Origin: a phage
Reading direction: 5' to 3' (one strand)
DNA: 34,803 nt
Assembly: GCA_021149145.1 (NCBI GenBank)
Contig: GCA_021149145.1_4322.1
Below the pieces are notes generated by a model. The model was not told the origin of the DNA. It saw only the letters and a list, made by a program, of their open reading frames with translations, and ran no database searches. The position numbers and the translations under genes were made by a program. Numbering within the stretch: the stretch's first letter is position 1; each line of letters starts with the position of its first letter. Below are positions 6,888 to 34,121 of this stretch, piece after piece.

Positions 6888-6902
6888 TTTATTTGCTCCA
6901 AT

Positions 6903-6923
6903 AAAAAAGCCCCATTTAGGGGC
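6903..6923 (-). terminator. rho-independent terminator closing the moron
   Basis: Minus strand reads GCCCC-TAAAT-GGGGC followed by TTTTTT. It lies 15 nt upstream of the portal ATG. Confidence 0.7.
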
Positions 6924-6946
6924 TTAGTTTAGCATAGCTTTTATGG

Positions 6947-7300: not shown

Positions 7301-7375
7301 TTTTTACTCCTCTCGTTTGCGTGAAGTAACTATAAGCCACCCTTGGCGGCGCGTCTTTAGCAAAACGTGCTATTT
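7301..7375 (-). promoter_or_regulatory. promoter-leader cassette copy
   Basis: Minus strand reads AATAGCACGTTTTGCTAAAGACG, 17 nt, TATAGT, then TACTTCACGCAAACGAGAGGAG and the ATG. The TAG inside the box is the TerL stop codon. Confidence 0.6.
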
Positions 7376-9056: not shown

Positions 9057-9581
9057 TTACAGTTTGCTAATCACAGACTCCAGGGCTTCCTTCATCGTTT
9101 CGACGTCGTTAGCAGAAGAGTTATTGCTTATAGTGATCTCCTGCGGTTTGTCGATTCCAAGCTCCTTGGAAATCATGCCAGGGTTAACAATGCCAGATGC
9201 TGCAAGCTGGTATTTCTGCTCGCGAATCACGGAATCAATGAATGCAATCACCTCATCATAACCAGCCGACTTCCTCCATTTCTCGATGGCGCCATGGGTG
9301 ACACCGCAGTAAAGGCAGAATCCGGTTAGCGTGAAGACTCTTGGTTTGTGCACCAGGCTCTCTTTTACCACACCCTGGAAGCTGGCTGTCTCGATTGCAT
9401 TGATTGCCTGGTCCTCAGCCCATGAGAAGTATTTCACGGCGAATTCAAATAGCTGTTCGGGTGTCATGCTTCTGTTTTTGGCTAGCGTTGTAATGTCTGA
9501 GTACTTTTTATTGTACATGGCTTTAAAGTTGCCAGAGCGGACCTTTTCTTGCGCCTGACTGGTGAAGTTTTCGTCTTTCAT
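9057..9581 (-). CDS. terS: terminase small subunit
   Basis: 174 aa immediately upstream of TerL, with an HTH-like segment (FTLTGFCLYCGVTHGAIEKW). AGGAGG lies upstream of the ATG. Confidence 0.6.
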   Translation of the reverse strand: MKDENFTSQAQEKVRSGNFKAMYNKKYSDITTLAKNRSMTPEQLFEFAVKYFSWAEDQAINAIETASFQGVVKESLVHKPRVFTLTGFCLYCGVTHGAIEKWRKSAGYDEVIAFIDSVIREQKYQLAASGIVNPGMISKELGIDKPQEITISNNSSANDVETMKEALESVISKL

Positions 9582-10117: not shown

Positions 10118-10193
10118 TGGTGTTCCGCACTGGACTCGAACCAGTAACTAAGACTTAGGAGGTCTTTGCGTTATCCTGTTACGCCAGCAGAAC
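10118..10193 (-). tRNA. tRNA-Arg (anticodon CCU), CCA encoded
   Basis: Hand-folded 76-nt cloverleaf. Acceptor GTTCTGC/GCGGAAC has one G-U pair. D stem is GCGT/ACGC with GG in the loop. Anticodon stem is AAGAC/GTCTT with loop CT-CCT-AA. T arm is ACTGG-TTCGAGT-CCAGT, with discriminator A and CCA. Confidence 0.85.
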
Positions 10194-10579: not shown

Positions 10580-10770
10580 TAAAACTCCTCAGTGATAAGC
10601 ATCTTGCCACAATATTTGCACTCGTAGAACGCACATGTTTCACCTATTGATACACTTGGTTTTGTTGACTCGTGGTATGCAGAGCTTATCGCCTTAATGT
10701 CAAAATCGTGAATGATTGATGTGAACACGTAAATGTAATGATGTTTGTGATTATTGTCGTTATCACTCAT
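10579..10770 (-). CDS. hypothetical Cys-containing small protein
   Basis: The start ATGAGTGAT at 10770 (MSDNDNNHK...) lies inside a 29-bp repeat that also carries the start of the neighbouring mini-ORF. The C-terminus has a CxxC (CKYC). Confidence 0.45.
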   Translation of the reverse strand: MSDNDNNHKHHYIYVFTSIIHDFDIKAISSAYHESTKPSVSIGETCAFYECKYCGKMLITEEF

Positions 10771-10789
10771 AAAGGCTATTCCCATTCTC
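10761..10789. repeat. 29-bp perfect direct repeat, copy 1
   Basis: TATCACTCATAAAGGCTATTCCCATTCTC is identical to 10886-10914, and the flanking bases differ. Confidence 0.9.
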
Positions 10790-10793
10790 TAAC

Positions 10794-10895
10794 CTAATTC
10801 AATGTAAATATGAAGAAAATCATCCCAATTGCCGTAGCTATAGCCAATCCGATGGCGATCAGAGTTAGTACTAAATCAATGATAATATCACTCAT
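10794..10895 (-). CDS. 33-aa hydrophobic mini-protein (single predicted TM helix), absent from the ORF track
   Basis: Translation is MSDIIIDLVLTLIAIGLAIATAIGMIFFIFTLN. The ATG overlaps the upstream stop (ATGAGTGA). The ORF is bracketed by the 29-bp repeats. Confidence 0.5.
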   Translation of the reverse strand: MSDIIIDLVLTLIAIGLAIATAIGMIFFIFTLN

Positions 10896-10914
10896 AAAGG
10901 CTATTCCCATTCTC
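10886..10914. repeat. 29-bp perfect direct repeat, copy 2
   Basis: Identical to 10761-10789. Confidence 0.9.
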
Positions 10915-12643: not shown

Positions 12644-13165
12644 CTATTTAGCCTCCTTAATCATTTCTTGGTATGCGTTAATCATTGATACTGCACCCTT
12701 AAGTTCATCACCTTCAAGACCAGCGACGCTTGGTGATAGTTTCAACAATCGAGCCTTGAACCTTTCAATGGTAGCCGCCTCCTTCTCTTGCTCTGCTTTG
12801 CTTCTTGAGCCGGATTTTACAGCGCCAGGAACCAGGCTAAGTGATGCGCAGTATGTCTCACTCTCGCCATCAAAGTCGGTAAAACTAAGTGAGAACCTTG
12901 AGCGCACGTCAGCCGCCTTAATCTCAGGCATTCGGCTTACGGTGTTTGAAACGTATGACGCTTTTAGTTTTGGCATGTGGTATTCACCACCAGGTAGAAC
13001 CTCCTGACCACTTAGCGATACGAACGTCTCACGACTCATGCCGAAGTATTGACGAGCAATCATGGTCACAGGGACTGTGCACACTTTGTCTTCTGACTTG
13101 AGCGCCTGACTCGCCATGTATCGAATGATTTCACCCAAACTTACTGCTTCTTTATGTTCTGACAT
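12644..13165 (-). CDS. hypothetical protein, first gene of the leftward early operon (possible DNA-binding protein)
   Basis: 173 aa with CAGGAG upstream. An HTH-like stretch (VTMIARQYFGMSRETFVSLSG) is a weak, eye-only call. Confidence 0.5.
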   Translation of the reverse strand: MSEHKEAVSLGEIIRYMASQALKSEDKVCTVPVTMIARQYFGMSRETFVSLSGQEVLPGGEYHMPKLKASYVSNTVSRMPEIKAADVRSRFSLSFTDFDGESETYCASLSLVPGAVKSGSRSKAEQEKEAATIERFKARLLKLSPSVAGLEGDELKGAVSMINAYQEMIKEAK

Positions 13166-13210
13166 ATTCGTTACTCCTGATTGGTTGCCCTTCGTTAAGA
13201 TGAAACCATG

Positions 13211-13530
13211 GTATCATGAATATACGCGTTATCAAGTGTTATGTTGTGTTTATATCTGCATTGGTTACGCTTTTTGACCTCTCAGCCCAGCTATAGCTGG
13301 TGTAATTACCCTGTGTAAGATTTTACGCGGATTCGCCGGGGGTATGCATATGTATCTATATAGATAAAATTAGTAGTTTTCATAGAAAAACTATCGACCC
13401 ATCCATACGACCAATCTACACCATATACATACATATATACAATAATAATAATAATATAGTAAAAGGTTGATATATATAGATATTATTATGTAACCATTGC
13501 GTAATCTAGCGTGGTAGGCGTATATGATTC
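13211..13530. repeat. AT-rich switch-region module, copy A
   Basis: Collinear with 32981-33327. Shared blocks are TATACGCGT, CATTGG..TTACG, AGCTATAGCT, (AAT)5 at 13441-13455 and a 29-bp identical core at 13458-13486. Iterons TGCGTA, AGCGTG and GGCGTA sit at 13498, 13508 and 13518. Confidence 0.8.
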
Positions 13531-13650
13531 TTCGGAAGCGCACCTCATATACACACCATAACTTCGATAACGTGTATATCCAAATTGGCTCAGCAAGAAT
13601 CAAAATCAACTTGTATGGTAGTTCATCCACCATTCATTCACCCCACATCA

Positions 13651-13750
13651 ATCATTGCAAATCCCGCAACAATCAAAAACATCATTGCATTCGATGCAAT
13701 ATTGTTATATGTGCAATAGTAAGATTAATCATTGCAATATCTGCAACAAT
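13651..13750 (+). promoter_or_regulatory. array of three ATCATTGCAA-type operator-like repeats
   Basis: The repeats are ATCATTGCAAATCCCGCAACAATC (13651), ATCATTGCATTCGATGCAATATTG (13681, containing the palindrome ATTGCAT-TCG-ATGCAAT) and ATCATTGCAATATCTGCAACAAT (13728). An extra TGCAATAGT lies at 13712. Confidence 0.55.
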
Positions 13751-13764
13751 AAATAAATCCAACT

Positions 13765-13837
13765 AATAGCACTTTTTGCTAAAGACATTTAGGTATTGCG
13801 GAGTTATGGTTCACTCATCAACAACGAGGAGAGAGAT
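13765..13837 (+). promoter_or_regulatory. promoter-leader cassette copy (rightward early operon)
   Basis: Reads AATAGCACTTTTTGCTAAAGACA, 17 nt, TATGGT, then TCACTCATCAACAACGAGGAGAGAG and the ATG. Confidence 0.6.
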
Positions 13838-14023
13838 ATGAAACTTAAAGACGAAGCATTTGAGCAATTAAAGCAGGAATGTGCGCTGATTGGATTGAAC
13901 AGTGACTATACTGATATGGTTTTACGCGGACGCATCAATATCGACCTTGCTAAGCAATTCCAGTCAGATGATGAATATATGTGCTGCGATGGCCTCGGCT
14001 GCGACGAATGTTTACCATGGTAA
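13838..14023 (+). CDS. hypothetical early protein (Cys-rich C-terminus)
   Basis: The ATG at 13838 follows GAGGAGAGAG. The 61-aa protein ends YMCCDGLGCDECLPW. The track start at 13796 lies inside the leader. Confidence 0.5.
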   Translation: MKLKDEAFEQLKQECALIGLNSDYTDMVLRGRINIDLAKQFQSDDEYMCCDGLGCDECLPW

Positions 14024-17018: not shown

Positions 17019-17360
17019 ATGTACCTGCTCGACCTGTATAATTTCTGCGAAGGATACAAGAACTTCAACCGCCAGCACCTGGCAAGATTCATCTATAAGC
17101 ACAAGGATTGCGCAAGGATGGCCAAGGCTGCCGGGGTTGATGAAAGGTATTTTGCCTCAAGTTGCTCGAAGGAGTTTATAGCGAGAATGCTTACGGCTGG
17201 GTATCTTGATGGGGTTAATGGAGTGTACTGGTGTAAGGGTTCAATTAAGCGACCATTTCAGTTTGAATTCATGAGCCTTGAAGGTAGGTCCAGTGATTAC
17301 GTCAGTGAGATGATGAACATAGCCAACATGAGTGATGACGAATTGTTTGCACAAAAATAG
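17019..17360 (+). CDS. hypothetical protein
   Basis: 113 aa, starting 1 nt after the upstream stop (TAA 17013-17015) and ending at the shared terminator. Confidence 0.5.
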   Translation: MYLLDLYNFCEGYKNFNRQHLARFIYKHKDCARMAKAAGVDERYFASSCSKEFIARMLTAGYLDGVNGVYWCKGSIKRPFQFEFMSLEGRSSDYVSEMMNIANMSDDELFAQK

Positions 17361-17381
17361 CCCCATTACGGGGCTTTTTTG
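17356..17381. terminator. terminator shared by convergent operons
   Basis: GCCCC-ATTAC-GGGGC followed by TTTTTT on the plus strand. The spanin stop codon (17366-17368) lies in the loop. Confidence 0.7.
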
Positions 17382-22823: not shown

Positions 22824-24533
22824 TCAATCCTCCATCGTAAATGATTTGTTGGCGATAATATCTTGAGACTTCTGGTTTTTACGGTGTGTGATTCTCAATG
22901 GGGCACGGAATAGATGTGCATTTGTCATAATCATTCTAGCATTACGCAATCTGCCAATTCTGAATGCCTCATTCCTGTTATCGATGTGTGTTGAGCAGAA
23001 AGCCTTCCATTTAACAGAGCAAACGCGATGGTCTGATTCAGGGAAGAATGTTTCATAAGCTCGGAATCTGTCACCACTGTGAGCCATAACCTCATATGAA
23101 GCAATAATCCCTGACTGGTTCTTTGTTAACCCAATCTTGAAGTCATAAACTCGCAACCAGTCCCCCTTACGATACATTTTTCCTGATAACTTAGCATTCG
23201 GGTCTATGAGCATCTCACCACAGCATCTGCAATTCTTAGCTGCAATATCATTCTTCTCACCGCATCCTTTCTTGATGATAGCTTTGGTCTGTGGGTCCGC
23301 CATATCTTCACACAGTATAAACTGAAAGAAGTGCTCGCAACGCTTACCGTCAATTACATTATTACAACGCCGTGCGAACGGAGAGTTCTCATAAGAACAT
23401 GCCGGGCATACCCTAGGTTCATCACCTCCTTTCCTTGATGACTTAAACTTCTGGTCCTGAACTTCTTCTATAATTGGGTCAAAGTAAAGCTCTGCCATAT
23501 CGTCAAGCGTTCCGGCGAAATCGAGAACAACATGGTCTTCTTTTACCATCCCTGAATCCTTGTGTTTTTTCTTAAGAATTCGCATACCACGACCAAGCAA
23601 CTGAATGAGTAGAGTAATGCTACCAACCTTCCTCAGGATAATGCTTGTATCCCACGGGGGGCAGTTTACGCCAGTTGTGAGGCAACCAATCTGAAATATG
23701 AACTTATATTCTCCGTTGGCTGCCTTCTCAAGTATCTCTCTACGCTTCTTCTCACCAGTGGAGTTGGTAACTATCGCCCAAGTAACACCTTCTGGAAGTG
23801 CGGCTGCCGCCTCCTCGCAATGCCGTTTGCCAGCGCAAGTTACCAATGCAGCATTCCTTGTTTCCATAAACTTAGCAGCAAATCTCATTATCTTTTGTGT
23901 CATCGTTTGGTTTTCGTGAATCTTTGCAGCCATCGCATCCATTTCTTTCTTGCTGAAGTCCTTAACCCCATCACTTCCATCAGGAGTGAACTCACTAAGG
24001 TCGTAGCCCAAATCACCAACTTCACCGTAGACAGTAGGAACAACGAACCCCAAGTCAACAAGGTAGCTGGTTGGCACTTGCATTACAGTTTTGCGCCAGA
24101 ATCCACGGACATTTGGGTTACTAACTACAATGTGGTCGTTGTTACGGTACGGGCTACCAGTTAACCCAAAGATACGAAGTTCGCGACCGTACTTCTCCCT
24201 GCATCGACGCTTCATTTCGGTAATGATTAACGTGTATTGCGCGCGACCAGTGCCAAGAAGCCCGGTATTCACACCATCCTTAAAGACCATCTCACCATTC
24301 TTCGTGCTCATCTGCTCGAATGTTTCCTCATTCTCTTCAGCTTCTACGATATCCATATGGTCCACCATGTGGCAATTATGTGCCACGACCCCGTCAGCAA
24401 TGAAATTATGGTGCTCAGGCATCTCTATATCCCAAACAAGTTCCTTGCCAATTGGTGAGATGTCTTTAATTTTGCTTGATTTTGTATTCCACGCCATTTT
24501 CCATGTGCTTACTAATTCTCTTAAAAAACTCAT
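22824..24533 (-). CDS. intein C-terminal splicing segment plus helicase C-extein (SF2 motifs III-VI, Zn ribbons)
   Basis: Residues 31-53 (ELVWDIEMPEHHNFIADGVVAHN) are intein blocks F/G, followed by Cys54-HMVD. Later motifs are GLTGSP, LTTGVN, QLLGRGMR and the CxxC clusters CPACS...CNNV, CGEK...CRCCGE. The frame is closed upstream by a stop at 24552-24554. Confidence 0.75.
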   Translation of the reverse strand: MSFLRELVSTWKMAWNTKSSKIKDISPIGKELVWDIEMPEHHNFIADGVVAHNCHMVDHMDIVEAEENEETFEQMSTKNGEMVFKDGVNTGLLGTGRAQYTLIITEMKRRCREKYGRELRIFGLTGSPYRNNDHIVVSNPNVRGFWRKTVMQVPTSYLVDLGFVVPTVYGEVGDLGYDLSEFTPDGSDGVKDFSKKEMDAMAAKIHENQTMTQKIMRFAAKFMETRNAALVTCAGKRHCEEAAAALPEGVTWAIVTNSTGEKKRREILEKAANGEYKFIFQIGCLTTGVNCPPWDTSIILRKVGSITLLIQLLGRGMRILKKKHKDSGMVKEDHVVLDFAGTLDDMAELYFDPIIEEVQDQKFKSSRKGGDEPRVCPACSYENSPFARRCNNVIDGKRCEHFFQFILCEDMADPQTKAIIKKGCGEKNDIAAKNCRCCGEMLIDPNAKLSGKMYRKGDWLRVYDFKIGLTKNQSGIIASYEVMAHSGDRFRAYETFFPESDHRVCSVKWKAFCSTHIDNRNEAFRIGRLRNARMIMTNAHLFRAPLRITHRKNQKSQDIIANKSFTMED

Positions 24534-25514
24534 CTTGTGCCGACCTCGTTGTTATTGATACTGAGTAAAGCTCTCTCTTTTTCTTGCCGCCAATATAGCT
24601 TCTAACCTTAACTCCGTCATTAGCAATAAATGCTATTAGCGCATCAACTACTGATTGAACTTCACTCCTGCTAAATGATTCGGTGTGGATTTCTACAACC
24701 CTCTTCCCTGAGCTTACAGTGCAATGACCATCATCACCAAAGTAAGCAGCCCAACCAACTGGATCAAGCTCTCTGCATATCTTTCCAATATCGTAACCAT
24801 CCTTAGAATTTCCGTACTTATCAGCATATGAATCCAGAACTTTCGTACATGATGTTGATACGCAAAACCAGTTGTCGCCAAATCCAGGGTTTTTCTTCTC
24901 CCTGTATCTAGGGTTTAGTTTTGCAAACCTTTCAACCTTGCTTAGTGCGTGCTCCTTATTTCCAATATTCCAAGATAGCCTATGCGTTCCTTTTTCTGTA
25001 TTTTTAATCAAGCAACCATCACCAGCCATTGCCGCAAGAATGTTTTGATGTAAAAAGTCATCAACCTCCATTGATGGGTTGACGGTTGAATTATGATGCC
25101 CCGTTCTGTAATCCAAATAGAAATCGAAAGGGTTCTTAAGAAGTACGCCTAACCCCTTGCTTGAATGCGGCATAACTTTTTCACCACAGCCACACTTGCA
25201 CGCAGGAGCTTTTTCGTAAATTTGTCCTGCGAGCCGTCTAGCGACAGATTCATCCCAATACGAAGTTTTCCCGCTCCTACCCAGCAGCCGTTCGAATAAA
25301 GTTTGTGTGTACTCGTGCATTTTATTTCCTCTCCGCTTTCTAATTTAATTGATGATACATGTCTTACACCATTAGTAAAAACTCTTTTTGGCTTATGATA
25401 GAAGTAATCACCAGTGCTTTCGTTTATGCATTTTATTTTATGATTGATAAGGTCTTCGCTATCAATCCTCATCATCCCTGAATCGGTGGTTATCATCGTG
25501 TCTCCAGTTAAGCA
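24375..25514 (-). mobile_element. intein element in helicase motif II (1140 nt = 380 codons)
   Basis: Bounded by AIDE|CLTGDTMI (Cys codon 25514-25512) and VVAHN|CH (Cys codon 24374-24372). The two exteins are in the same frame. Confidence 0.8.
24466..25320 (-). CDS. double-motif LAGLIDADG homing endonuclease, separate ORF nested in the intein
   Basis: Carries LAAMAGDGCL and AAYFGDDGHC and ends ...VEYKIKQN. It has its own ATG 7 nt after GGAGAGGA. Its frame differs from both intein halves, and it is closed upstream by a stop at 25345-25347. Confidence 0.75.
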   Translation of the reverse strand: MHEYTQTLFERLLGRSGKTSYWDESVARRLAGQIYEKAPACKCGCGEKVMPHSSKGLGVLLKNPFDFYLDYRTGHHNSTVNPSMEVDDFLHQNILAAMAGDGCLIKNTEKGTHRLSWNIGNKEHALSKVERFAKLNPRYREKKNPGFGDNWFCVSTSCTKVLDSYADKYGNSKDGYDIGKICRELDPVGWAAYFGDDGHCTVSSGKRVVEIHTESFSRSEVQSVVDALIAFIANDGVKVRSYIGGKKKRELYSVSITTRSAQDEFFKRISKHMENGVEYKIKQN

Positions 25515-25958
25515 CTCATCTATCGCGATAACAGCAGGAGCATAGTCACCAAGCCCCTTAAACAAGCCGTTAGCAGCCGTTCCCTCACTAGCCACTATGG
25601 TTGGATAGTAAACTGATTTAACGTTAAGGCCAGCGCAATAGACGCTATTACGGATGCCGAAATTACGAAGTTCCTCTGCGTTCTGGCTGACAATCTCTGA
25701 CTGGCGAGATAGGACCATGTAAGGAAGGCCAAGCTGTTCCATTCGTTTCCCAATCATGGCGAGAATAATCGTCTTGCCAGCCGAAACCGATAGGTCTGCT
25801 ATGAATGGCGCTTCGTACTTGCCAATAGCCTTTCCGATTGCGTCAAATGTCACGCACTGGAATGGGTATGGTGTGATTTCTCCGAACTGATAATCATTTT
25901 GAATCTGCTTGATTTTATCTTGGTCAAAGTTTGCTACTAAGCGTTCTACTGGAAGCAT
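25149..25958 (-). CDS. helicase N-extein (motifs I-II) plus intein N-terminal splicing segment
   Basis: Walker A DLSVSAGKT, then AIDE followed at residue 149 by block A CLTGDTMI and block B CTSTHKL. It stops after 121 intein residues. Confidence 0.75.
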   Translation of the reverse strand: MLPVERLVANFDQDKIKQIQNDYQFGEITPYPFQCVTFDAIGKAIGKYEAPFIADLSVSAGKTIILAMIGKRMEQLGLPYMVLSRQSEIVSQNAEELRNFGIRNSVYCAGLNVKSVYYPTIVASEGTAANGLFKGLGDYAPAVIAIDECLTGDTMITTDSGMMRIDSEDLINHKIKCINESTGDYFYHKPKRVFTNGVRHVSSIKLESGEEIKCTSTHKLYSNGCWVGAGKLRIGMNLSLDGSQDKFTKKLLRASVAVVKKLCRIQARG

Positions 25959-26054: not shown

Positions 26055-26528
26055 ATGTGTAAAATTGACAAGCGAACTATTAACGGCAATAACGGGACCG
26101 TCCGCACGCAAGACAAGAAGCAACGCAAGCGACCTTCAGGCTACTACGTATTGAAAGATGAAGTAAAGGCTGGTCTACGCGCGCGTCTGGAAATGATTCT
26201 TGATTTCTACGGCACGAAAGCCAATATCGCCAAGCAGTTAAATGTATCTCACCAGACTGTAGAGCAATGGTTTAATCGCGGGATGATTTCGGCTCGAGGG
26301 GCTCAGAGAGCGCATAATGCGTACAAGCGAAATAAGGAAGGGTTCCGAGCTACATTCTGCCGACCAGACCTGCAATTCGACGGTAACGGAAAGCCGCTAA
26401 CACTTCGATGCAAGAAACGCCATATGCTTCGCGTAGTTACCGAGGCAGAACTAGCAATAAAACCACCCTGTCGACCGTGGCGCAAGAATAAGATTGCTAA
26501 CGAAGCAGCACGAAAAGCTAAAGGGTAA
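26055..26528 (+). CDS. HTH DNA-binding protein (Cro/YdaS-like), basic
   Basis: Contains GTKANIAKQLNVSHQTVEQWFNRGMIS. The N- and C-terminal regions are Arg/Lys-rich. Confidence 0.6.
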   Translation: MCKIDKRTINGNNGTVRTQDKKQRKRPSGYYVLKDEVKAGLRARLEMILDFYGTKANIAKQLNVSHQTVEQWFNRGMISARGAQRAHNAYKRNKEGFRATFCRPDLQFDGNGKPLTLRCKKRHMLRVVTEAELAIKPPCRPWRKNKIANEAARKAKG

Positions 26529-28000: not shown

Positions 28001-28026
28001 TTGCCTGAAAGATGGTAGAATGAATT

Positions 28027-28046
28027 TTGGCAATTAGTGCTACTTT
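28027..28046. promoter_or_regulatory. palindromic box copy in reverse orientation, in the tailspike 5' region
   Basis: TTTGGCAATTAGTGCTACTT lies 19 nt upstream of the tailspike ATG. Read on the minus strand it matches AGTAGCACTAATTGCCAAA, but no minus-strand gene follows. TGGTAGAAT (extended -10) lies upstream on the plus strand. Confidence 0.45.
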
Positions 28047-28064: not shown

Positions 28065-30518
28065 ATGGCAATTTATGACTTAGGAACAGCATCGCTAGCC
28101 TCAAATGGCGAGGTTACTGGCGTAGGTACTACATGGAAAGCACCTCTTACACTGATTCGTGTAGGTGCTACTATCATTTTCAAAACCAGCCCTCTGAAAA
28201 TTTACACCATCTCTGAAATCATCAGCGATACTCAGGTTAATGTTTATAATCCAAGTTCTGAAACTGTTCCCGCTGGTACTGGTTACGCAATTCTTGCTCA
28301 TGATGGAATTACTGTTCAGGGGTTGGCGCAGGATGTTGCGGAAACATTGCGTTACTACCAGTCAAAAGAGACTTCTATTGAAAGTCTACTGCAATTTATT
28401 GGTCAAGATACTTTTGATTGGCCTCGTCTTGAACAACTGGCAACTCAGTCAACTACCGGAGCTGCCGAGGCGCTTGCTAGTCAGATCTCTGCCGCTGAGA
28501 GTGCCTCTACAGCGGTAGGTGCTAGCAATAACGCACAAAATTCATATAACAGGACGGTTGCAGCAATAAATGCGGCTGGAAATACAGCGGCTGTTGCTTA
28601 CTTTGCTGATCACGGAATAGGTAGCACGACAACGCCATTTCTTACCTCTTTAGATTGGCAAACAATGCAATTTTGTTCCGGAGGTCGTTATCAGTGCACA
28701 CTTAGGGATATGTTAAACACCCCAAAAGAAATTAGTTCAATGTTTCCGGTTTCAACAACTCCTATTTGTATTGATGTTATTGCAACTAGGGGTGTTAATT
28801 CGGCTAGTGTATTAAGGTTATCTCCGTCTACTGGGTCAAACTCAAATTTTAGGATTGCAGATGTCACAATTTCTGGTGCGACTGGATCTAGGGTTTTTTA
28901 TGTAAGGGAAGCACTAAGCTTGCCTGGCGGTGATGCTGCAACTGGTGGAGCAAGCGCGTCAAGGGTTAGGGGGTTGCTTGATGTTTACTCAAAGGGTGAG
29001 GTGTTATCAATTTTAAATACAGATTCAAAAAAAAGCACATCAAGCTATGGCGGCTCAATATCTTCAGCAATAGAAACCGCTGGCGATGGCGGGTCGGTAG
29101 TTATAGGCCCGGGAACTTATGAGAGTAATAACTACTCCTTTGCTGGCAGGAACATATCAGGCTCTGGATATAATACCGTAATAAGTGTTAAACCTTTTGA
29201 AACCGGACTCACATCAACGCTATCGGTTCCGCACTGGAGGCAAAAGCATTTATCGGATTTGCAGTTTACAGGTACTGCAATACAAGGTAATAACGGCTTT
29301 CAATTCCCGGATGACCCTTATGCTGGAAGGGTTGTATTGGATAGGCTTTACTTCAATGACCTGGATGTTGGTATAAGGAAAAATGCTGGCAACATTGGAA
29401 ATACCTACAGAAACGTAAGTGTTAGAAATGCGAATTACGGGTATAGAGCAAAAGCTCATGACAAAATGCATATAGGATCGGACACTTTATACGGATACCA
29501 CTCAGATACAATCTCTCAATATTCAGTAATGCTAGATGCGACAAGCACAAGTAGCGCAACGAACCATGGCGCTGGAGGAATTGGTGGGTGGTGGATTAGG
29601 GATTCAATAATGGAGGACTCTGCTGGCGGCGGTATAAGGTTAAAGAATAAACCTGGAGATTGCCCAACATCACCTTGCGGATTGTCTAACGTATGGTTTG
29701 AAGCGATAGCAACTGGGGGAGCAGTTAACGTAGGTGAGGGAGCTGAACTCCCAAGGGTTTTGAAGCTCATCGATACGTCCGTTTTCTTTGCTGAGCATTC
29801 TTATATTAATAACATTGAGTTATCAAATTCAAACCTTGTAACTTATGGGTGCAGGTTTGATAACGCTGATGGGCGCCAAAGTTTCTCTCTTGATTCGAAC
29901 AGTATTATTTTTGCTAAGGATGCATACCTGAATGGATCTTCAACATCAAACGTTATAGTTGAGTCGCTGGTATCACAGACAGCCAAGATAACGGGTACAT
30001 CTGACTTATCTGTTAGAGGATATGTTACTAAAGGTCGAGTTTTTAATCCAGATTCCGGAACTGTTTTAGTCAGGAGGCCTTTTGGTACTGGTGGGAGCAA
30101 CTTTGGTGGAACAGCGTCGGCAAGTGAAGGTCCTGATACAAGGGGTATACACTCGCTATCATCTGGATACTACGAATTGCTTGGTGCGGCTCAGTACGAA
30201 TTGATAAATGGTGCCTTTAATATAACCGCTGGCAAATGGTATGTTTGGGGTATCTCTGCAAACAGAATTCAAGGTGGTGCTGATGGTGTTATCCGTATTT
30301 TTGGTAGAGCATCTTTAGGGCAGGTATTCACTGAGGGCGGTAAGTGGGTTCACACATTTGGAGTTGCTCAGGCTTCAGTCTCTGGCACTGCAAACCTGCA
30401 TATCAACCTTAATGGGCTACCTGGTATGGCATTAAGTCTTGCTGATTACTTCGTTGTAGAGTTCGATAACCAAAGAGACGCTTTAATATTTGCCAACTCA
30501 AGGATGGCGCTTCAATAA
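28065..30518 (+). CDS. tailspike / tail fibre with a probable parallel beta-helix (depolymerase-like) domain
   Basis: 817 aa. It has an N-terminal domain of about 110 aa (MAIYDLGTASLASNGEVTG...AILAHDGITVQGLAQDVAETLRYYQ), an Ala-rich linker, and Gly/Asn/Ser-rich repeats (GSVVIGPGTYESNNY, NISGSGYNTVIS) typical of pectate-lyase-fold spikes. Confidence 0.6.
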   Translation: MAIYDLGTASLASNGEVTGVGTTWKAPLTLIRVGATIIFKTSPLKIYTISEIISDTQVNVYNPSSETVPAGTGYAILAHDGITVQGLAQDVAETLRYYQSKETSIESLLQFIGQDTFDWPRLEQLATQSTTGAAEALASQISAAESASTAVGASNNAQNSYNRTVAAINAAGNTAAVAYFADHGIGSTTTPFLTSLDWQTMQFCSGGRYQCTLRDMLNTPKEISSMFPVSTTPICIDVIATRGVNSASVLRLSPSTGSNSNFRIADVTISGATGSRVFYVREALSLPGGDAATGGASASRVRGLLDVYSKGEVLSILNTDSKKSTSSYGGSISSAIETAGDGGSVVIGPGTYESNNYSFAGRNISGSGYNTVISVKPFETGLTSTLSVPHWRQKHLSDLQFTGTAIQGNNGFQFPDDPYAGRVVLDRLYFNDLDVGIRKNAGNIGNTYRNVSVRNANYGYRAKAHDKMHIGSDTLYGYHSDTISQYSVMLDATSTSSATNHGAGGIGGWWIRDSIMEDSAGGGIRLKNKPGDCPTSPCGLSNVWFEAIATGGAVNVGEGAELPRVLKLIDTSVFFAEHSYINNIELSNSNLVTYGCRFDNADGRQSFSLDSNSIIFAKDAYLNGSSTSNVIVESLVSQTAKITGTSDLSVRGYVTKGRVFNPDSGTVLVRRPFGTGGSNFGGTASASEGPDTRGIHSLSSGYYELLGAAQYELINGAFNITAGKWYVWGISANRIQGGADGVIRIFGRASLGQVFTEGGKWVHTFGVAQASVSGTANLHINLNGLPGMALSLADYFVVEFDNQRDALIFANSRMALQ

Positions 30519-30546
30519 AAAAAGCCCCGAAAGGGGCTTTATCTTT
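30519..30546. terminator. bidirectional terminator between the tailspike and SSB
   Basis: AAAAAA-GCCCC-GAAA-GGGGC-TTTATCTTTT. Confidence 0.7.
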
Positions 30547-30548
30547 TA

Positions 30549-30977
<429 letters not shown>

Positions 30978-31744: not shown

Positions 31745-32710
31745 TAGAAGTTCTTGATACTGCTTACTTACCCACTCAGGAATCATCAAATCTTGCTCTG
31801 TAATTCCATTACTGTATCCAGGCCACTCATCAAGTTCCTTGCACTGCTTGTAAACAGCCAGAGCCTCTAAATATTGTAAGCGCCCAATGCGAAGCTGCTC
31901 ATCTGTAAGTGTGTAGCACATAGGTAAGTAGGGCTCTGTTTTCTCCTGAGCCAGAAGTCGAACCACAACCTTACGCTTTTCGTTGAATGCTTTAACAAAC
32001 AAATCGCGCTGAAGTGCCATCTTACACAGGTAACCATGGTCATAAGCTGACTTACCAAATCCTCTAGGGCTTGCGTCTGCTGTTGTTTTATAGTCAGTAA
32101 TGTAAACCACTCCATTAACAACATCCACGTGGTCAAGCCGAACCTTAACGCCGCAGCCGAGAATCTCACCAAAGATTGACAGCTCTTTCTGTGCTATTGG
32201 TGAATTAATTACCGCATCGTAAGCCGGAATATTGGTCAGAACTTCTCGCATTGCGATTACCTTGTCGTAATCTTTAGCACTAACCAGCTCCTTGCCACTA
32301 ATTAACGCCTCAGCGCTCTCCTGCTGCTCAATTAACCATTTAACCGGCCAATCCTCGCCAGACTTATACATCATCTCCACAAGCTCGTTATAACCCTTCC
32401 CTGACGTGCCGGAAACGCCAACTTTTTTAAGCGCTGCCGATAAAGCTGTTTTGCTAGTAATCAATCCTTCCACTTCGTCAAAGTCAGTAGCTCGCATGTA
32501 AGTGGAATCGAACACTTCACGTTCTAGCATCATCGTATGTCCCAAAGTGCCAAACTTTAGTGCTGCACTTGAGTTGCTGCGCTGCTTAAATTTCCATTTT
32601 GCTGGAGAAGTAGCAAGAATCTCAGCCAGCGAAGAGCCAGAGATATGGTCTTTCTCTTCGTGATAGGATTCATTTGTTAGCTCGTCGTTCGTATAAACTT
32701 TAAATGTCAT
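31739..32710 (-). CDS. RecE-like PD-(D/E)xK exonuclease
   Basis: Contains LDHVDVVNGVVYITDYKT (D...D-x-K core). It is paired with Erf and SSB downstream. Confidence 0.6.
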   Translation of the reverse strand: MTFKVYTNDELTNESYHEEKDHISGSSLAEILATSPAKWKFKQRSNSSAALKFGTLGHTMMLEREVFDSTYMRATDFDEVEGLITSKTALSAALKKVGVSGTSGKGYNELVEMMYKSGEDWPVKWLIEQQESAEALISGKELVSAKDYDKVIAMREVLTNIPAYDAVINSPIAQKELSIFGEILGCGVKVRLDHVDVVNGVVYITDYKTTADASPRGFGKSAYDHGYLCKMALQRDLFVKAFNEKRKVVVRLLAQEKTEPYLPMCYTLTDEQLRIGRLQYLEALAVYKQCKELDEWPGYSNGITEQDLMIPEWVSKQYQELLK

Positions 32711-32713
32711 GGC

Positions 32714-32908
32714 TCAATCCTTAATTTTAACAATCTTAACAGCTTTCAAATCTTCCTCAGTGAAATATCCGGTCAGAATAGATTTTGCCTCTTTCTTGCT
32801 ATCGAATCGGTCCGCTTCAGATTTGTGAACTGTATATCCAGCGGGGCCACCAAAGTAGCAATCGCCGAACAGTGCGTTGTTTTTCTCTTTAATAATGAAG
32901 TATGGCAT
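32714..32908 (-). CDS. hypothetical protein, first gene of the recombination operon
   Basis: 64-aa ORF with AGAGAGATAGAG upstream. Confidence 0.5.
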   Translation of the reverse strand: MPYFIIKEKNNALFGDCYFGGPAGYTVHKSEADRFDSKKEAKSILTGYFTEEDLKAVKIVKIKD

Positions 32909-32980
32909 TTCTCTATCTCTCTATTGTTGCGTGCTTTCGATTAGTTAATGATGCCGTACGCACAACGCATAGTCCAATTG

Positions 32981-33327
32981 GTATCACCTATTAATTAATC
33001 AAGTATACGCGTATAATTTTGTAACTACGTGTAGACATTGGCATGAGTTACGTTTTTAGCCACTTAAGCCAAGCTATAGCTCAATGTAAATAGTGAGTAT
33101 ACCGTGTATACCGATTTTAGCGGAGGGTGCATAGGTATAGGTGCTGCGCAATACTGTATAAAATCACATGGTATAAAAATTATAAGCGGAACACTCAAGA
33201 ACAGTAGTTACATGATATACAAGATATACATATATAATAATAATAATAAGAGTAAAAGGTTGATATATATAGATATTATAATGTAACTATGGCGTAAACT
33301 GGCGTAACTGGGCGTATACGATTTCCA
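32981..33327. repeat. AT-rich switch-region module, copy B
   Basis: Collinear with 13211-13530. It has the palindrome TATACGCGTATA (33004-33015), AGCTATAGCT (33072-33081), (AAT)4 at 33236-33247 and a 29-bp identical core at 33251-33279. GGCGTA iterons sit at 33291, 33301 and 33311. Confidence 0.8.
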
Positions 33328-33373
33328 GCGGATGCATATGGTATACATGGAGTTACATTGGTTACGCGTAAAC

Positions 33374-33449
33374 AATAGCACGAATAGCTAAAACTAATAC
33401 GCAAAACCCTGTATAGTTGGTCACACAAAAAACGAGAGAGGATTTCAAA
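33374..33449 (+). promoter_or_regulatory. promoter-leader cassette copy
   Basis: Reads AATAGCACGAATAGCTAAAACT, 16 nt, TATAGT, then TGGTCACACAAAAAACGAGAGAGG and the ATG. Confidence 0.6.
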
Positions 33450-34121
33450 ATGGTTATTTGGTCTTTATTTGATGGTTCAGGGCTGGCTGTGAAAGATTGG
33501 GCTGAGGCTTGTCACGAGTGCTACTGTTTCAACTTTGATGAGTCTGACCACGGTAGTTACGGGGATTTAAATGCAAAATTTGAACATGAGAACATCACCT
33601 ACGTTAATGCCTGGATAGATGGCAACTTCGACTTTGATGTGAAGCCTGATATCATTTTAGCGTTCCCGCCGTGTACGGATTTAGCCGTGAGCGGGTCAAG
33701 GCACTTTGAGCGAAAGCGACTGGTTAACCATAACTTCCAGATTGAAGCTGCGGAAACATGTAAAGTTGCTTTTAACTTGGCTAATAAGTACGAAGTCCCA
33801 TACATGATTGAGAATCCAATCAGCGTACTGTCATCACTCTGGAGAAAGCCTAATAAGACTTTCCACCCATATGAATACGGAGGCTATTTGCCGGAAGATG
33901 ATTTACACCCGTTTTTTAGCGACCTAATAAAGCCAAAAGACGCATATCCCAAGAAGACATGCATTTGGTATGGCAATGGGTTTAAATGGCCAGAGGCGAT
34001 TCCTGTGGACGTTAACGATGGATTCTCTGACCAATACAAGAAGCTTGGTGGGAAGAGTAAGAAGACAAAGGTAATTCGCAGTCTAACTCCTCGCGGTTTT
34101 GCAAAAGCAGTCTTCATAGCA

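Follow-up and report, generated by a model that had tools for sequence, protein, structure and literature searches.

A duplicated, strongly constrained non-coding module in T1-like phages resembles iteron/IHF/AT-rich nucleoprotein sites

The locus and its paralogue

The DNA analysed here is a 34,803-nucleotide stretch of a phage genome (contig GCA_021149145.1_4322.1 of NCBI GenBank assembly GCA_021149145.1; hereafter the window), and our subject is a non-coding module near its right end, copy B, together with the paralogous copy A (Table 1). By megablast and blastn the window belongs to a T1-like phage of the Drexlerviridae, subfamily Braunvirinae; the closest records are the Escherichia phages ES and AN_ECEAS, and the gene order is that of phage Rtp reversed. 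Terminase and head-tail genes run leftward from ~13.1 kb, and small early genes and a DUF3987 helicase gene run rightward from ~13.8 kb. An earlier reading of the same DNA from its letters alone (the sequence-only reading) had placed copy B between a leftward recombination operon and rightward methyltransferase/Cor genes, and this is the arrangement found: the genes for a PDDEXK exonuclease, ERF and the SSB-position protein run leftward from 32.9 kb on the left flank, and those for a DNA methyltransferase (MTase; ATG at 33450) and a Cor-type lipoprotein run rightward from 33.45 kb on the right flank.

Comparison of the two copies indicates that copy B is a real paralogue of copy A and a constrained cis-acting element. 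The copies share a 29-bp exact match and are 91% identical over 55 nt and 83.6% identical over 116 bp; weaker homology spans ~370 bp and includes the GC-containing blocks AGCTATAGCT, GGTTACG and GCGGA. The similarity is thus not confined to low-complexity AT sequence, a doubt that the sequence-only reading had itself raised. The pattern GCGTA-N4-6-GCGT-N5-7-GCGTA has exactly two matches in the window, one per copy, and none in 100 shuffles. Within the modules GTATA/TATAC is enriched 12-fold and GCGTA 8-fold, and the heptamer ACGCGTA occurs five times in the modules and not once in the remaining 33.6 kb. Each module measures ~370–400 bp; one precedes the recombination operon and the other sits at the left end of the map. 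They are full paralogues ~18–20 kb apart and form direct repeats in the window and in five complete genomes; a sixth phage, IME542, represented by two contig fragments, also has both. Among nine genomes from four subfamilies, both modules lie at the same two map positions. The aligned copies fall into two groups by type, one of A and one of B, which makes the duplication an ancient one. Homologues of copy B were found in ~130 phage records and those of copy A in a similar number. A pattern scan of IMG/VR yielded no more than 10 stretches, on 8 contigs, most of which duplicate phages already in GenBank, and a plasmid collection contained no match to the module.

Conservation was measured in alignments of copies from 14 phages (14 of type B and 7 of type A). 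Module B (33000–33395) is 74–87% identical to twelve aligned orthologues (74–82% for Rtp, 12397V, A110b, T145P1 and Msk), and its core (33203–33370) is 83–90% identical. At 4-fold degenerate sites of the flanking genes, identity between the window and the same five phages is 35–52%. Conservation of module B is therefore about that of the best-conserved gene in the region, which implies that purifying selection acts strongly on all of it. On its right, copy B has a mosaic junction as its edge: homology to relatives runs out at ~33392. The first rightward gene beyond it varies: in the window it encodes a Dcm-like methyltransferase, in CEB_EC3a a Rha-domain protein, and in Rtp, AN_ECEAS and Rogue1 (gp40) a Cor-type lipoprotein. 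Rogue1 has an extra Rha-domain gene (gp41) as well, on the opposite, exonuclease side of the module.

No RNA or protein gene was detected in the modules. At Rfam gathering thresholds nothing matched there (one tRNA was found elsewhere in the window), and RNAalifold on 13 B copies gave a covariation term of -0.49 kcal/mol with compensatory change in 4 of the 88 predicted pairs; by this comparison the predicted RNA 'helices' of the module are invariant DNA inverted repeats. A simple scan of 13000–13900 and 32600–33600 found no terminator-like sites in the modules. There is no conserved open reading frame (ORF) in the module, since frame, place and length vary by copy and indels are not multiples of three; the hypothetical proteins annotated across module B in some GenBank records are not conserved.

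The replication origin of T1-like phages is not known, and a 2024 re-analysis of TLS found no iterons or origin-type repeats anywhere in that genome and predicted three sigma-70 promoters only (PMC11447400). No transcription-start, origin or IHF (integration host factor) data for T1-like phages were found in the literature searched; the original T1 and Rtp genome papers may mention these regions. Taken on the alignments, the paired cis-module is real, ancient and strongly constrained, and as far as the searchable literature shows it is undescribed.

Phased arrays, an AT-rich centre and a putative IHF site

The right array of module B consists of four phased units (TGTAAC, CGTAAA, CGTAAC and CGTATA; TRF period 10). 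The sequence-only reading had described it as GGCGTA x3 at 10-bp spacing; the three matches are present as claimed, but the conserved unit is (Y)GTAWAC/GCGTA in four phased units. All aligned A and B copies keep this phasing, as do a metagenomic relative and Rogue1. A second array lies ~200 bp further left and is 75% and 74% identical to 33280–33332 in two internal repeat alignments; within it GTGTATATCGTGTATA is invariant among B copies; the IHF consensus lies between both arrays.

Module B is bounded by ~31-bp imperfect inverted repeats. Their outermost parts are the palindromes TATACGCGTATA and TTACGCGTAA, each a pair of inverted repeat units, and an outward-facing promoter element lies just outside each. 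The left palindrome is perfect, as the sequence-only reading had it, and its TAC-NN-GTA core is kept in 13/13 B copies; the ACATTGG...TTACG brackets of that reading were likewise found. Exact TACGCGTA occurs in the window at 33006 and 33363 only, that is, at both ends of copy B. The inner palindrome AGCTATAGCT is equally restricted, every occurrence in the window (13289 and 33072) and in Rtp falling in the modules. The distance from palindrome to palindrome is 351–357 bp in B copies and 346–349 or 373–376 bp in A copies.

Table 1. Features of the two modules and of their immediate surroundings in the window
Feature	Position	Strand	Sequence or description
Module B, whole	32975–33395		Non-coding, between recombination operon (leftward) and MTase/Cor genes (rightward); from conservation
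Copy-B leftward promoter-like element	32978–33002	-	TTGATT (33002–32997), 13-nt spacer, TGATACCAA (32986–32978); from sequence reading
Left boundary palindrome	33004–33015		TATACGCGTATA; two inverted GCGTATA units; perfect; from sequence reading
Left arm of imperfect terminal inverted repeat	33020–33036		TGTAACTACGTGTAGAC; pairs with 33341–33357; 82% complementary; positions invariant across relatives
ACATTGG...TTACG brackets	33036–33053 and 33355–33366		
Palindrome	33072–33081		AGCTATAGCT
Left repeat array	33083–33124	+	TGTAAA, GTATACC twice, then GATTTTAGCGGA; internal paralogue of right array
AT-rich centre	33205–33285		84% A+T; least stable 80-bp duplex segment of the window; resembles a DNA-unwinding element
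Microsatellite	33234–33249		(AAT)4 / (ATA)5.3; TRF
Invariant 26-bp core	33251–33276	-	AGTAAAAGGTTGATATATATAGATAT; minus strand 33253–33265 reads TATCAACCTTTTA, matching IHF consensus WATCAANNNNTTR; AT-rich element 5'
Right array, phased direct repeats	33281–33318	+	TGTAAC 33281, GGCGTAA 33291–33297, GGCGTAA 33301–33307, GGCGTAT 33311–33317, then GATTTCCAGCGGA
Right arm of terminal inverted repeat	33341–33358		GTATACATGGAGTTACAT; invariant block
Right boundary palindrome	33362–33371		TTACGCGTAA; inverted GCGTAA units
Outward-facing 21-nt DR box	33375–33392	+	ATAGCACGAATAGCTAAA; with TATAGT hexamer 33412–33417, upstream of MTase ATG 33450
Module A (paralogue)	13200–13590		TATACGCGTTAT 13221–13232; AGCTATAGCT 13289–13298; (AAT)5 13441–13456 (TRF); IHF core 13458–13483; phased repeats 13499–13522; ATAACGTGTATA 13567–13578
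IHF consensus of module A	13460–13472	-	TATCAACCTTTTA
PL-A, strong sigma-70-type promoter	13208–13235	-	TTGATA-16-TGnTACCAT; palindrome TATACGCGTTAT within spacer; position weight matrix (PWM) score 12.5
DUF7174 gene	12644–13165	-	First gene from PL-A

Nearly all of the 21 aligned copies share the block AGTAAAAGGTTGATATATATAGATAT unchanged, and its minus strand is a perfect IHF consensus. Three matches to this consensus occur in the window (2.4 expected), two of which are the module cores. The consensus is present in 18/23 copies, at an offset of 4–5 bp from the microsatellite in all but DTL_B (2 bp). The significance of the putative IHF site thus comes from the invariant core and the fixed offset from the tract, not from the number of matches.

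When the 80-bp segments of the window are ranked by duplex stability, the cores of modules B and A come lowest (z = 4.9 and 4.8, respectively; next 3.6). The same holds in 9/9 genomes (the window, Rtp, T1, 12397V, Msk, Rogue1, TLS, A110b and T145P1), with z of ~4.4–6.3 for the cores and ~3.2–3.7 for the third-ranked segment. The instability persists in T1 and TLS, where the sequence has diverged, and position B of TLS, which is not a divergent junction, yet keeps its AT-rich core.

An (AAT)n tract is found in 23/23 copies, with a modal length of 4 units in B (range 2–5) and 6 in A (range 4–6); in the window the copy-B tract is one unit shorter than that of copy A, as had been noted from the letters. 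Across the region, 43 near-identical Veterinaerplatzvirus records (genome 44,219 bp in all but one, 44,091 bp) align identically. From these alignments the tract looks as if it slips on an evolutionary time scale but is constrained in length. The claim that it is mutable therefore holds for evolutionary slippage but is not supported in the sense of a contingency tract, since modal length is kept by copy type and the 43 isolates align identically.

Two other kinds of site were looked for and rejected. The best DnaA box, a 7/9 match (AAATCCACA), occurs in most B copies but not in that of the window, and TTGATA and TATAAT in the core stand 11 bp apart and form no canonical sigma-70 promoter on either strand.

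Promoters, lineage-specific motifs and a candidate binder

The leftward promoter of copy A, PL-A, is kept in 7/7 aligned copies and is the only strong, universally conserved sigma-70-type promoter. In every lineage examined its equivalent overlaps a copy of that lineage's module motif: TTGATA-17-TATAGT with ATACACGTAT in Rogue1, TTGACC-17-TATAGT with ACGCGTATAC in the metagenomic relative, TTGACG-17-TAATAT with AGAACAAA in TLS, and TTGACA with TGTAACAC at the -10 position in T1. The sequence-only reading had reported leftward promoter-like elements in both copies. In copy A the element is near-consensus, with canonically spaced -35 and -10 hexamers and an overlapping palindrome; in window copy B, by contrast, the 13-bp spacer is non-canonical, and a PWM scan found no strong sigma-70 site there. 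The further suggestion that the two leftward promoters differ in their wiring was borne out, as the palindrome falls within the 16-bp spacer in copy A and just upstream of TTGATT in copy B. In most relatives the leftward promoter of copy B reads TTGGAC-17-TATAGT and lies further downstream, after a degenerate DR-like element; it is missing from the window because the sequence beside the 64-codon gene has been replaced. On the right side, the DR box and the TATAGT hexamer (33375–33417) together form the probable rightward promoter of copy B; a TAnnnT hexamer is conserved downstream of the box.

The DR box is one copy of a 21-nt intergenic repeat of T1-like phages (aaATAGCACnnnTTGnTAAAA) that is known and unexplained (German et al., 2024; PMC11447400). 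The window has 14 copies of the repeat, ATAGCACnnnTwGnTAAA, against 0.8 expected (18-nt matches at 7356, 11180, 13766, 14579, 15359, 18808, 22389, 24619, 26012, 26025, 28026, 31725, 33375 and 34123), and at least 12 are co-oriented with transcription. The copies inspected have a TAnnnT hexamer and a conserved leader (..CCATCGAAACGAAAgagag..ATG) ~20 nt downstream, and the repeat looks like a promoter class in which it stands in place of the -35 element. The copy at 28026–28043 (minus strand) opposes the flanking plus-strand genes. The repeat touches the module in that the copy at 33375–33392 makes up the edge of copy B on the right, as a degenerate copy does on the left in relatives; it differs in being a separate, dispersed and already described element, not the duplicated module.

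We compared the k-mers restricted to the modules among subfamilies. ACGCGTA, the motif of the window, occurs four times in the modules of Rogue1 and not elsewhere; CCGCGGA in Rtp and TGTAACA in T1 each occur six times in the modules and not elsewhere; GTGAACA in TLS occurs four times in the modules and four times elsewhere. TATACA is enriched in the modules of all these genomes. The restricted k-mers thus differ by subfamily and are always common to both copies of a genome, as would be expected if a phage-encoded, lineage-specific protein reads both modules. This agrees with the proposal of the sequence-only reading that the repeats and palindromes behave like sites for a common factor, as the motifs shared by the two copies change together between subfamilies.

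The best candidate for such a trans-acting binder is the DUF7174 protein. In Braunvirinae, Rogunavirinae and Tempevirinae, Rogue1 and TLS included, the first gene behind the copy-A leftward promoter is always the one for this protein, and the T1 gene at this position gives a sub-threshold DUF7174 match. In all lineages a palindrome or motif of the repeat unit lies at PL-A upstream of this gene; it would be a candidate inverted-iteron operator if DUF7174 were an initiator, a role that is putative. The family corresponds to PHROG 4841, of unknown function. Structure prediction folded the N-terminal domain of the ~170-aa protein as a winged helix (pLDDT 92) and its C-terminal part as a helical hairpin, and the predicted fold resembles CtsR on DNA, pPS10 RepA and many OmpR/PhoB-type domains. 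On this model DUF7174 is probably a DNA-binding winged-helix protein, and nothing more is supported. A sequence search of the PDB with DUF7174 returned no match, and the DUF3987 helicase and the helix-turn-helix (HTH) regulator gave no informative sequence matches there. A hidden Markov model search of 1.8 billion representatives found DUF7174 in 60 clusters, nearly all of them stand-alone proteins of ~150–200 aa, with no credible fusions; ten distant members were checked and all were PHROG 4841. An alternative candidate binder is the Cro/CI-like HTH protein encoded at 26055–26528. A host regulator of CpxR/OmpR type, recognising GTAAA-N5-GTAAC, was considered and set aside as a remote candidate: the conserved positions are GCGT/GTAW, not GTAAA, and the A copies break the pattern.

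Several features elsewhere in the window are recorded here. A tRNA-Arg (anticodon CCT; 10118–10193, minus strand) lies among small genes upstream of the terminase genes, and a perfect 29-bp direct repeat, TATCACTCATAAAGGCTATTCCCATTCTC, occurs in the small-gene region at 10761–10789 and 10886–10914, 125 bp apart. A SNF2-type helicase gene (22824–25958, minus strand) carries an intein, with the N part of Intein_splicing in ORF 25149–25958, LAGLIDADG_2 in ORF 24466–25320, and the C part of Intein_splicing together with Helicase_C in ORF 22824–24533; as the gene is broken up into three ORFs that overlap and differ in frame, the intein may be decaying or the assembly may contain frameshift errors. 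A CAG/CAA tract (TGCTGTTGC...; 30565–30656) lies within ORF 30549–30977 (minus strand, the SSB-position gene), where the coding strand encodes a Gln-rich run. Related terminator-like hairpins (AAAAAGCCCCnnnnGGGGCTTtttt) occur at 6895–6925, 17346–17376 and 30509–30539, all outside the two module regions of the terminator scan; the latter two stand at convergent gene junctions and would be bidirectional, and the first lies between same-strand (minus) genes.

A possible origin-type assembly site or early control region

On its sequence features the module belongs to a known kind of element, the iteron/IHF/AT-rich nucleoprotein site. The closest likeness is to phage P4, whose ori and crr, the sites of the alpha primase-helicase, carry 8-bp iterons phased at 10–11 bp, in clusters of three and in both orientations; the module units are likewise short and phased. 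P4 has in addition three tandem 10-bp repeats and AT-rich stretches, as in the modules, and its iterons recur several kb from ori in crr, a further cis element, just as each T1-like genome has two cis elements. The TLS module motif GTGAACA (TGTTCAC; tandem at ~10 bp) is nearly identical to the core of the P4 type-1 iteron, GGTGAACA. GTGAACA sites lie at 28707–29117 and 1–588 in TLS and the P4 iterons at 9310–9413; TLS-type phages also have a P4-alpha-like primase. P4 alpha and the window primase are homologous over the N-terminal primase domain of alpha (E = 1e-14). In contrast, BLASTP detected no homologue of the C-terminal origin-binding domain or of the helicase of alpha, the window helicase showing no similarity to it, and the T1-like modules, known from sequence, are ~18–20 kb apart and are full paralogues with an IHF consensus and a microsatellite.

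Other systems share parts of this design. In the origins of iteron plasmids (pSC101, R6K gamma, F and pPS10) an AT-rich region and an IHF site lie beside three direct repeats, and inverted copies of the repeat core serve as operators at the adjacent promoter. The module differs from these in its unit length and period (5–7 bp and 10 bp, against 17–22 bp and 22 bp), in its presence twice per genome, in the lack of a DnaA box beyond the 7/9 match and in its candidate binder, a single winged-helix domain with a helical hairpin rather than a two-domain Rep protein. Lambda OL/PL and OR/PR are paralogous control regions with shared sites in threes and operators that overlap strong early promoters, and in the Mu early operator (O1-IHF-O2) the operator clusters at divergent promoters are separated by an IHF site. 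Unlike lambda and Mu, T1-like phages are without a lysogeny module and are described as virulent (PMC11447400), so that 'switch' in the lysis/lysogeny sense, the term of the sequence-only reading, has no basis. Their module is also much larger than these regions, its centre is extremely AT-rich, and its sites are 10-bp-phased direct repeats and short palindromes rather than 17-bp palindromes. Promoters are coupled to unwinding elements at T4 and T7 origins and in the activation of lambda ori; T4 ori(uvsY) and ori(34) and the T7 primary origin have promoter-proximal AT-rich unwinding elements, and a virulent phage genome carries them at more than one site. Those origins, however, are without iteron arrays and IHF sites, and a promoter reading into the AT-rich centre of the module is only a candidate.

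We favour, with a probability of roughly 0.4, the reading that copy B is an assembly site of origin type, bearing iterons and bent by IHF, to which early promoters under operator control are coupled. A lineage-specific phage DNA-binding protein, for which DUF7174 is the best candidate, would occupy both ~10-bp-phased YGTAWAC/GCGTA arrays and the inverted boundary copies, and host IHF would bind the invariant core and bend the DNA between the arrays. The ~80-bp, 84% A+T centre with (AAT)n, predicted to be the easiest place of the whole genome to melt, would serve as DNA-unwinding element, and the flanking inverted copies would act as operators for the outward-facing early promoters, giving autoregulation of the DUF7174 operon at copy A. 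The two copies may work as a pair of origins, or as an origin and a cis-enhancer, in the manner of P4 ori and crr. Three features that the sequence-only reading had not noticed, the IHF consensus, the extreme instability and the second array, are together no weaker evidence for an element of origin type than for a transcriptional switch. We lean to the former because of the conserved unwinding property, the phased repeats with a putative IHF site, the inverted operator copies, the P4 precedent and the lack of another origin candidate. Of the features expected of an origin, helically phased tandem repeats beside the unwinding element are present (3–4 units of 10-bp period), and an AT-rich, easily melted element is found in 9/9 genomes, although this is not specific to origins. 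A fully developed P4-like scheme appears unlikely; in it replication would be bipartite, from twin origins or from one origin with a crr-type enhancer, and DUF7174 would be an autoregulating initiator that has co-evolved with the iterons of each subfamily (ACGCGTA/GCGTAA, TGTAACA, GTGAACA).

The most serious competitor, and a possible one, is a purely transcriptional early control region, in which the modules would be paralogous operator/promoter hubs, much like lambda OL/PL and OR/PR or the Mu early operator, and would have no role in replication. A phage regulator would sit on the palindromes and phased repeats, bending by IHF would close a loop for repression or activation, and the early operons of both modules would be turned on or off in concert. 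Both modules head operons with early-type functions, PL-A is near-consensus and in every lineage carries the module motif at its -10 or within its spacer, and each copy-B palindrome is immediately followed, in the outward direction, by an outward-facing promoter element. The window also encodes a suitable Cro/CI-like regulator, and the AT-rich centre offers the candidates TTTACT-18-TATATT (10/13 B and 6/7 A copies) and ATGATA-17/18-AATAAT (13/13 B copies). As few sigma-70 promoters are predicted in T1-like genomes, early promoters would be expected at the modules (PMC11447400). Yet the ~400 bp of dense constraint, equal to that of the best-conserved coding genes, exceeds the need of a simple operator; the AT-rich centre lies 130–270 bp from the flanking promoters, too far for an UP element; and its instability is kept as a physical property in T1 and TLS despite sequence divergence, in TLS copy B even without a divergent junction. 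The centre promoters, moreover, are weak in both window copies, and chance matches are expected in TA-rich DNA. The same objections, poor promoter quality in the window copies and chance -10-like hexamers, apply to a phase-variable switch in which (AAT)n would be the spacer of a leftward promoter with its -35 (TTTACT) inside the IHF core and TATATT as its -10. The geometry recurs in the 10/13 B and 6/7 A copies and the tract ranges from 2 to 6 units among copies and phages, but tract length is conserved by copy type across genera (modal 4 in B, 6 in A) and the 43 Veterinaerplatzvirus records show no difference in the region, so we regard phase variation as quite improbable.

The remaining explanations are weaker still. 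A pac site for terminase, assisted by IHF as at lambda cosB or P1 pac, would fit the position of copy A ~130–250 bp from the starts of the records of T1 (2.8-kb terminal repeat), Rtp and several others, and P1 pac has phased short repeats around an IHF site, resembling the module. Record ends, however, map in an A-specific block at 13597–13790 (ATCATTGCA / GCAACAAT repeats) that has no counterpart beside copy B, and T1-type packaging begins at a single pac site (PMC11447400); as the record starts lie outside the module, the duplicated module is hardly conceivable as pac, and copy B is certainly not it. This non-coding block, 82–86% conserved, with TGCAAT repeats beside the two named and record starts at ~13705, is itself probably the pac region. 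The module could also be a miniature inverted-repeat transposable element (MITE)-like selfish element, or a conserved 'linker' promoting recombination between phage gene modules, in view of its ~31-bp imperfect terminal inverted repeats, its two copies per genome and the mosaic right edge of copy B with a downstream MTase, Cor or Rha-like gene. This is improbable in the extreme: both sites are occupied in every genome examined by orthologous A and B types that diverged long ago, there is no presence/absence polymorphism, and purifying selection on the interior is strong. The high conservation over ~400 bp and the hypothetical ORFs of some GenBank records would also fit a gene for a non-coding RNA or for a small, unannotated protein, but with no Rfam match, negligible covariation, no terminator-like sites and no conserved ORF we give this almost no weight.

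Several points weigh against the origin-type reading. Initiation at the modules, binding of IHF to the core and the identity of DUF7174 as the repeat binder are put forward from sequence and structure prediction. Two origins are not required, and the position at the starts of early operons is equally explained by a purely transcriptional role. The repeat units, at 5–7 bp, are short for classical iterons. The count of IHF matches (3 against 2.4) is by itself not statistically unusual, and the loss of the consensus in the Rogunavirus copies and in Rtp copy A means that it is not a family-wide requirement. As a control, the known ori of P4 ranks third for instability in its own genome, and duplex instability is thus supportive, not diagnostic or origin-specific. 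GC skew changes sign wherever the coding strand does, at each junction and also at a third divergent one at ~26000, and is therefore uninformative as a pointer to an origin. Divergence of DUF7174 does not track the variant A-copy repeats of Veterinaerplatzvirus-type phages, whose B copies are canonical, and no consistent helical phase of the boundary palindromes was found between A and B copies. On balance the origin-type and the transcription-only readings fit almost equally, the former being the one that we tentatively put first, and they are not mutually exclusive.

T1 is one of the seven classical T phages, and the Drexlerviridae are abundant coliphages that are used in phage therapy and in defence-system screens. 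The two modules are the most constrained non-coding DNA in these genomes, and their putative IHF site, phased repeats, boundary operators and candidate binder are parts that lend themselves to direct experiment. Their motifs provide a simple marker for subfamily-specific switches of specificity, and the modules themselves are a concrete candidate for the origin and/or the early-gene control region of T1-like phages.

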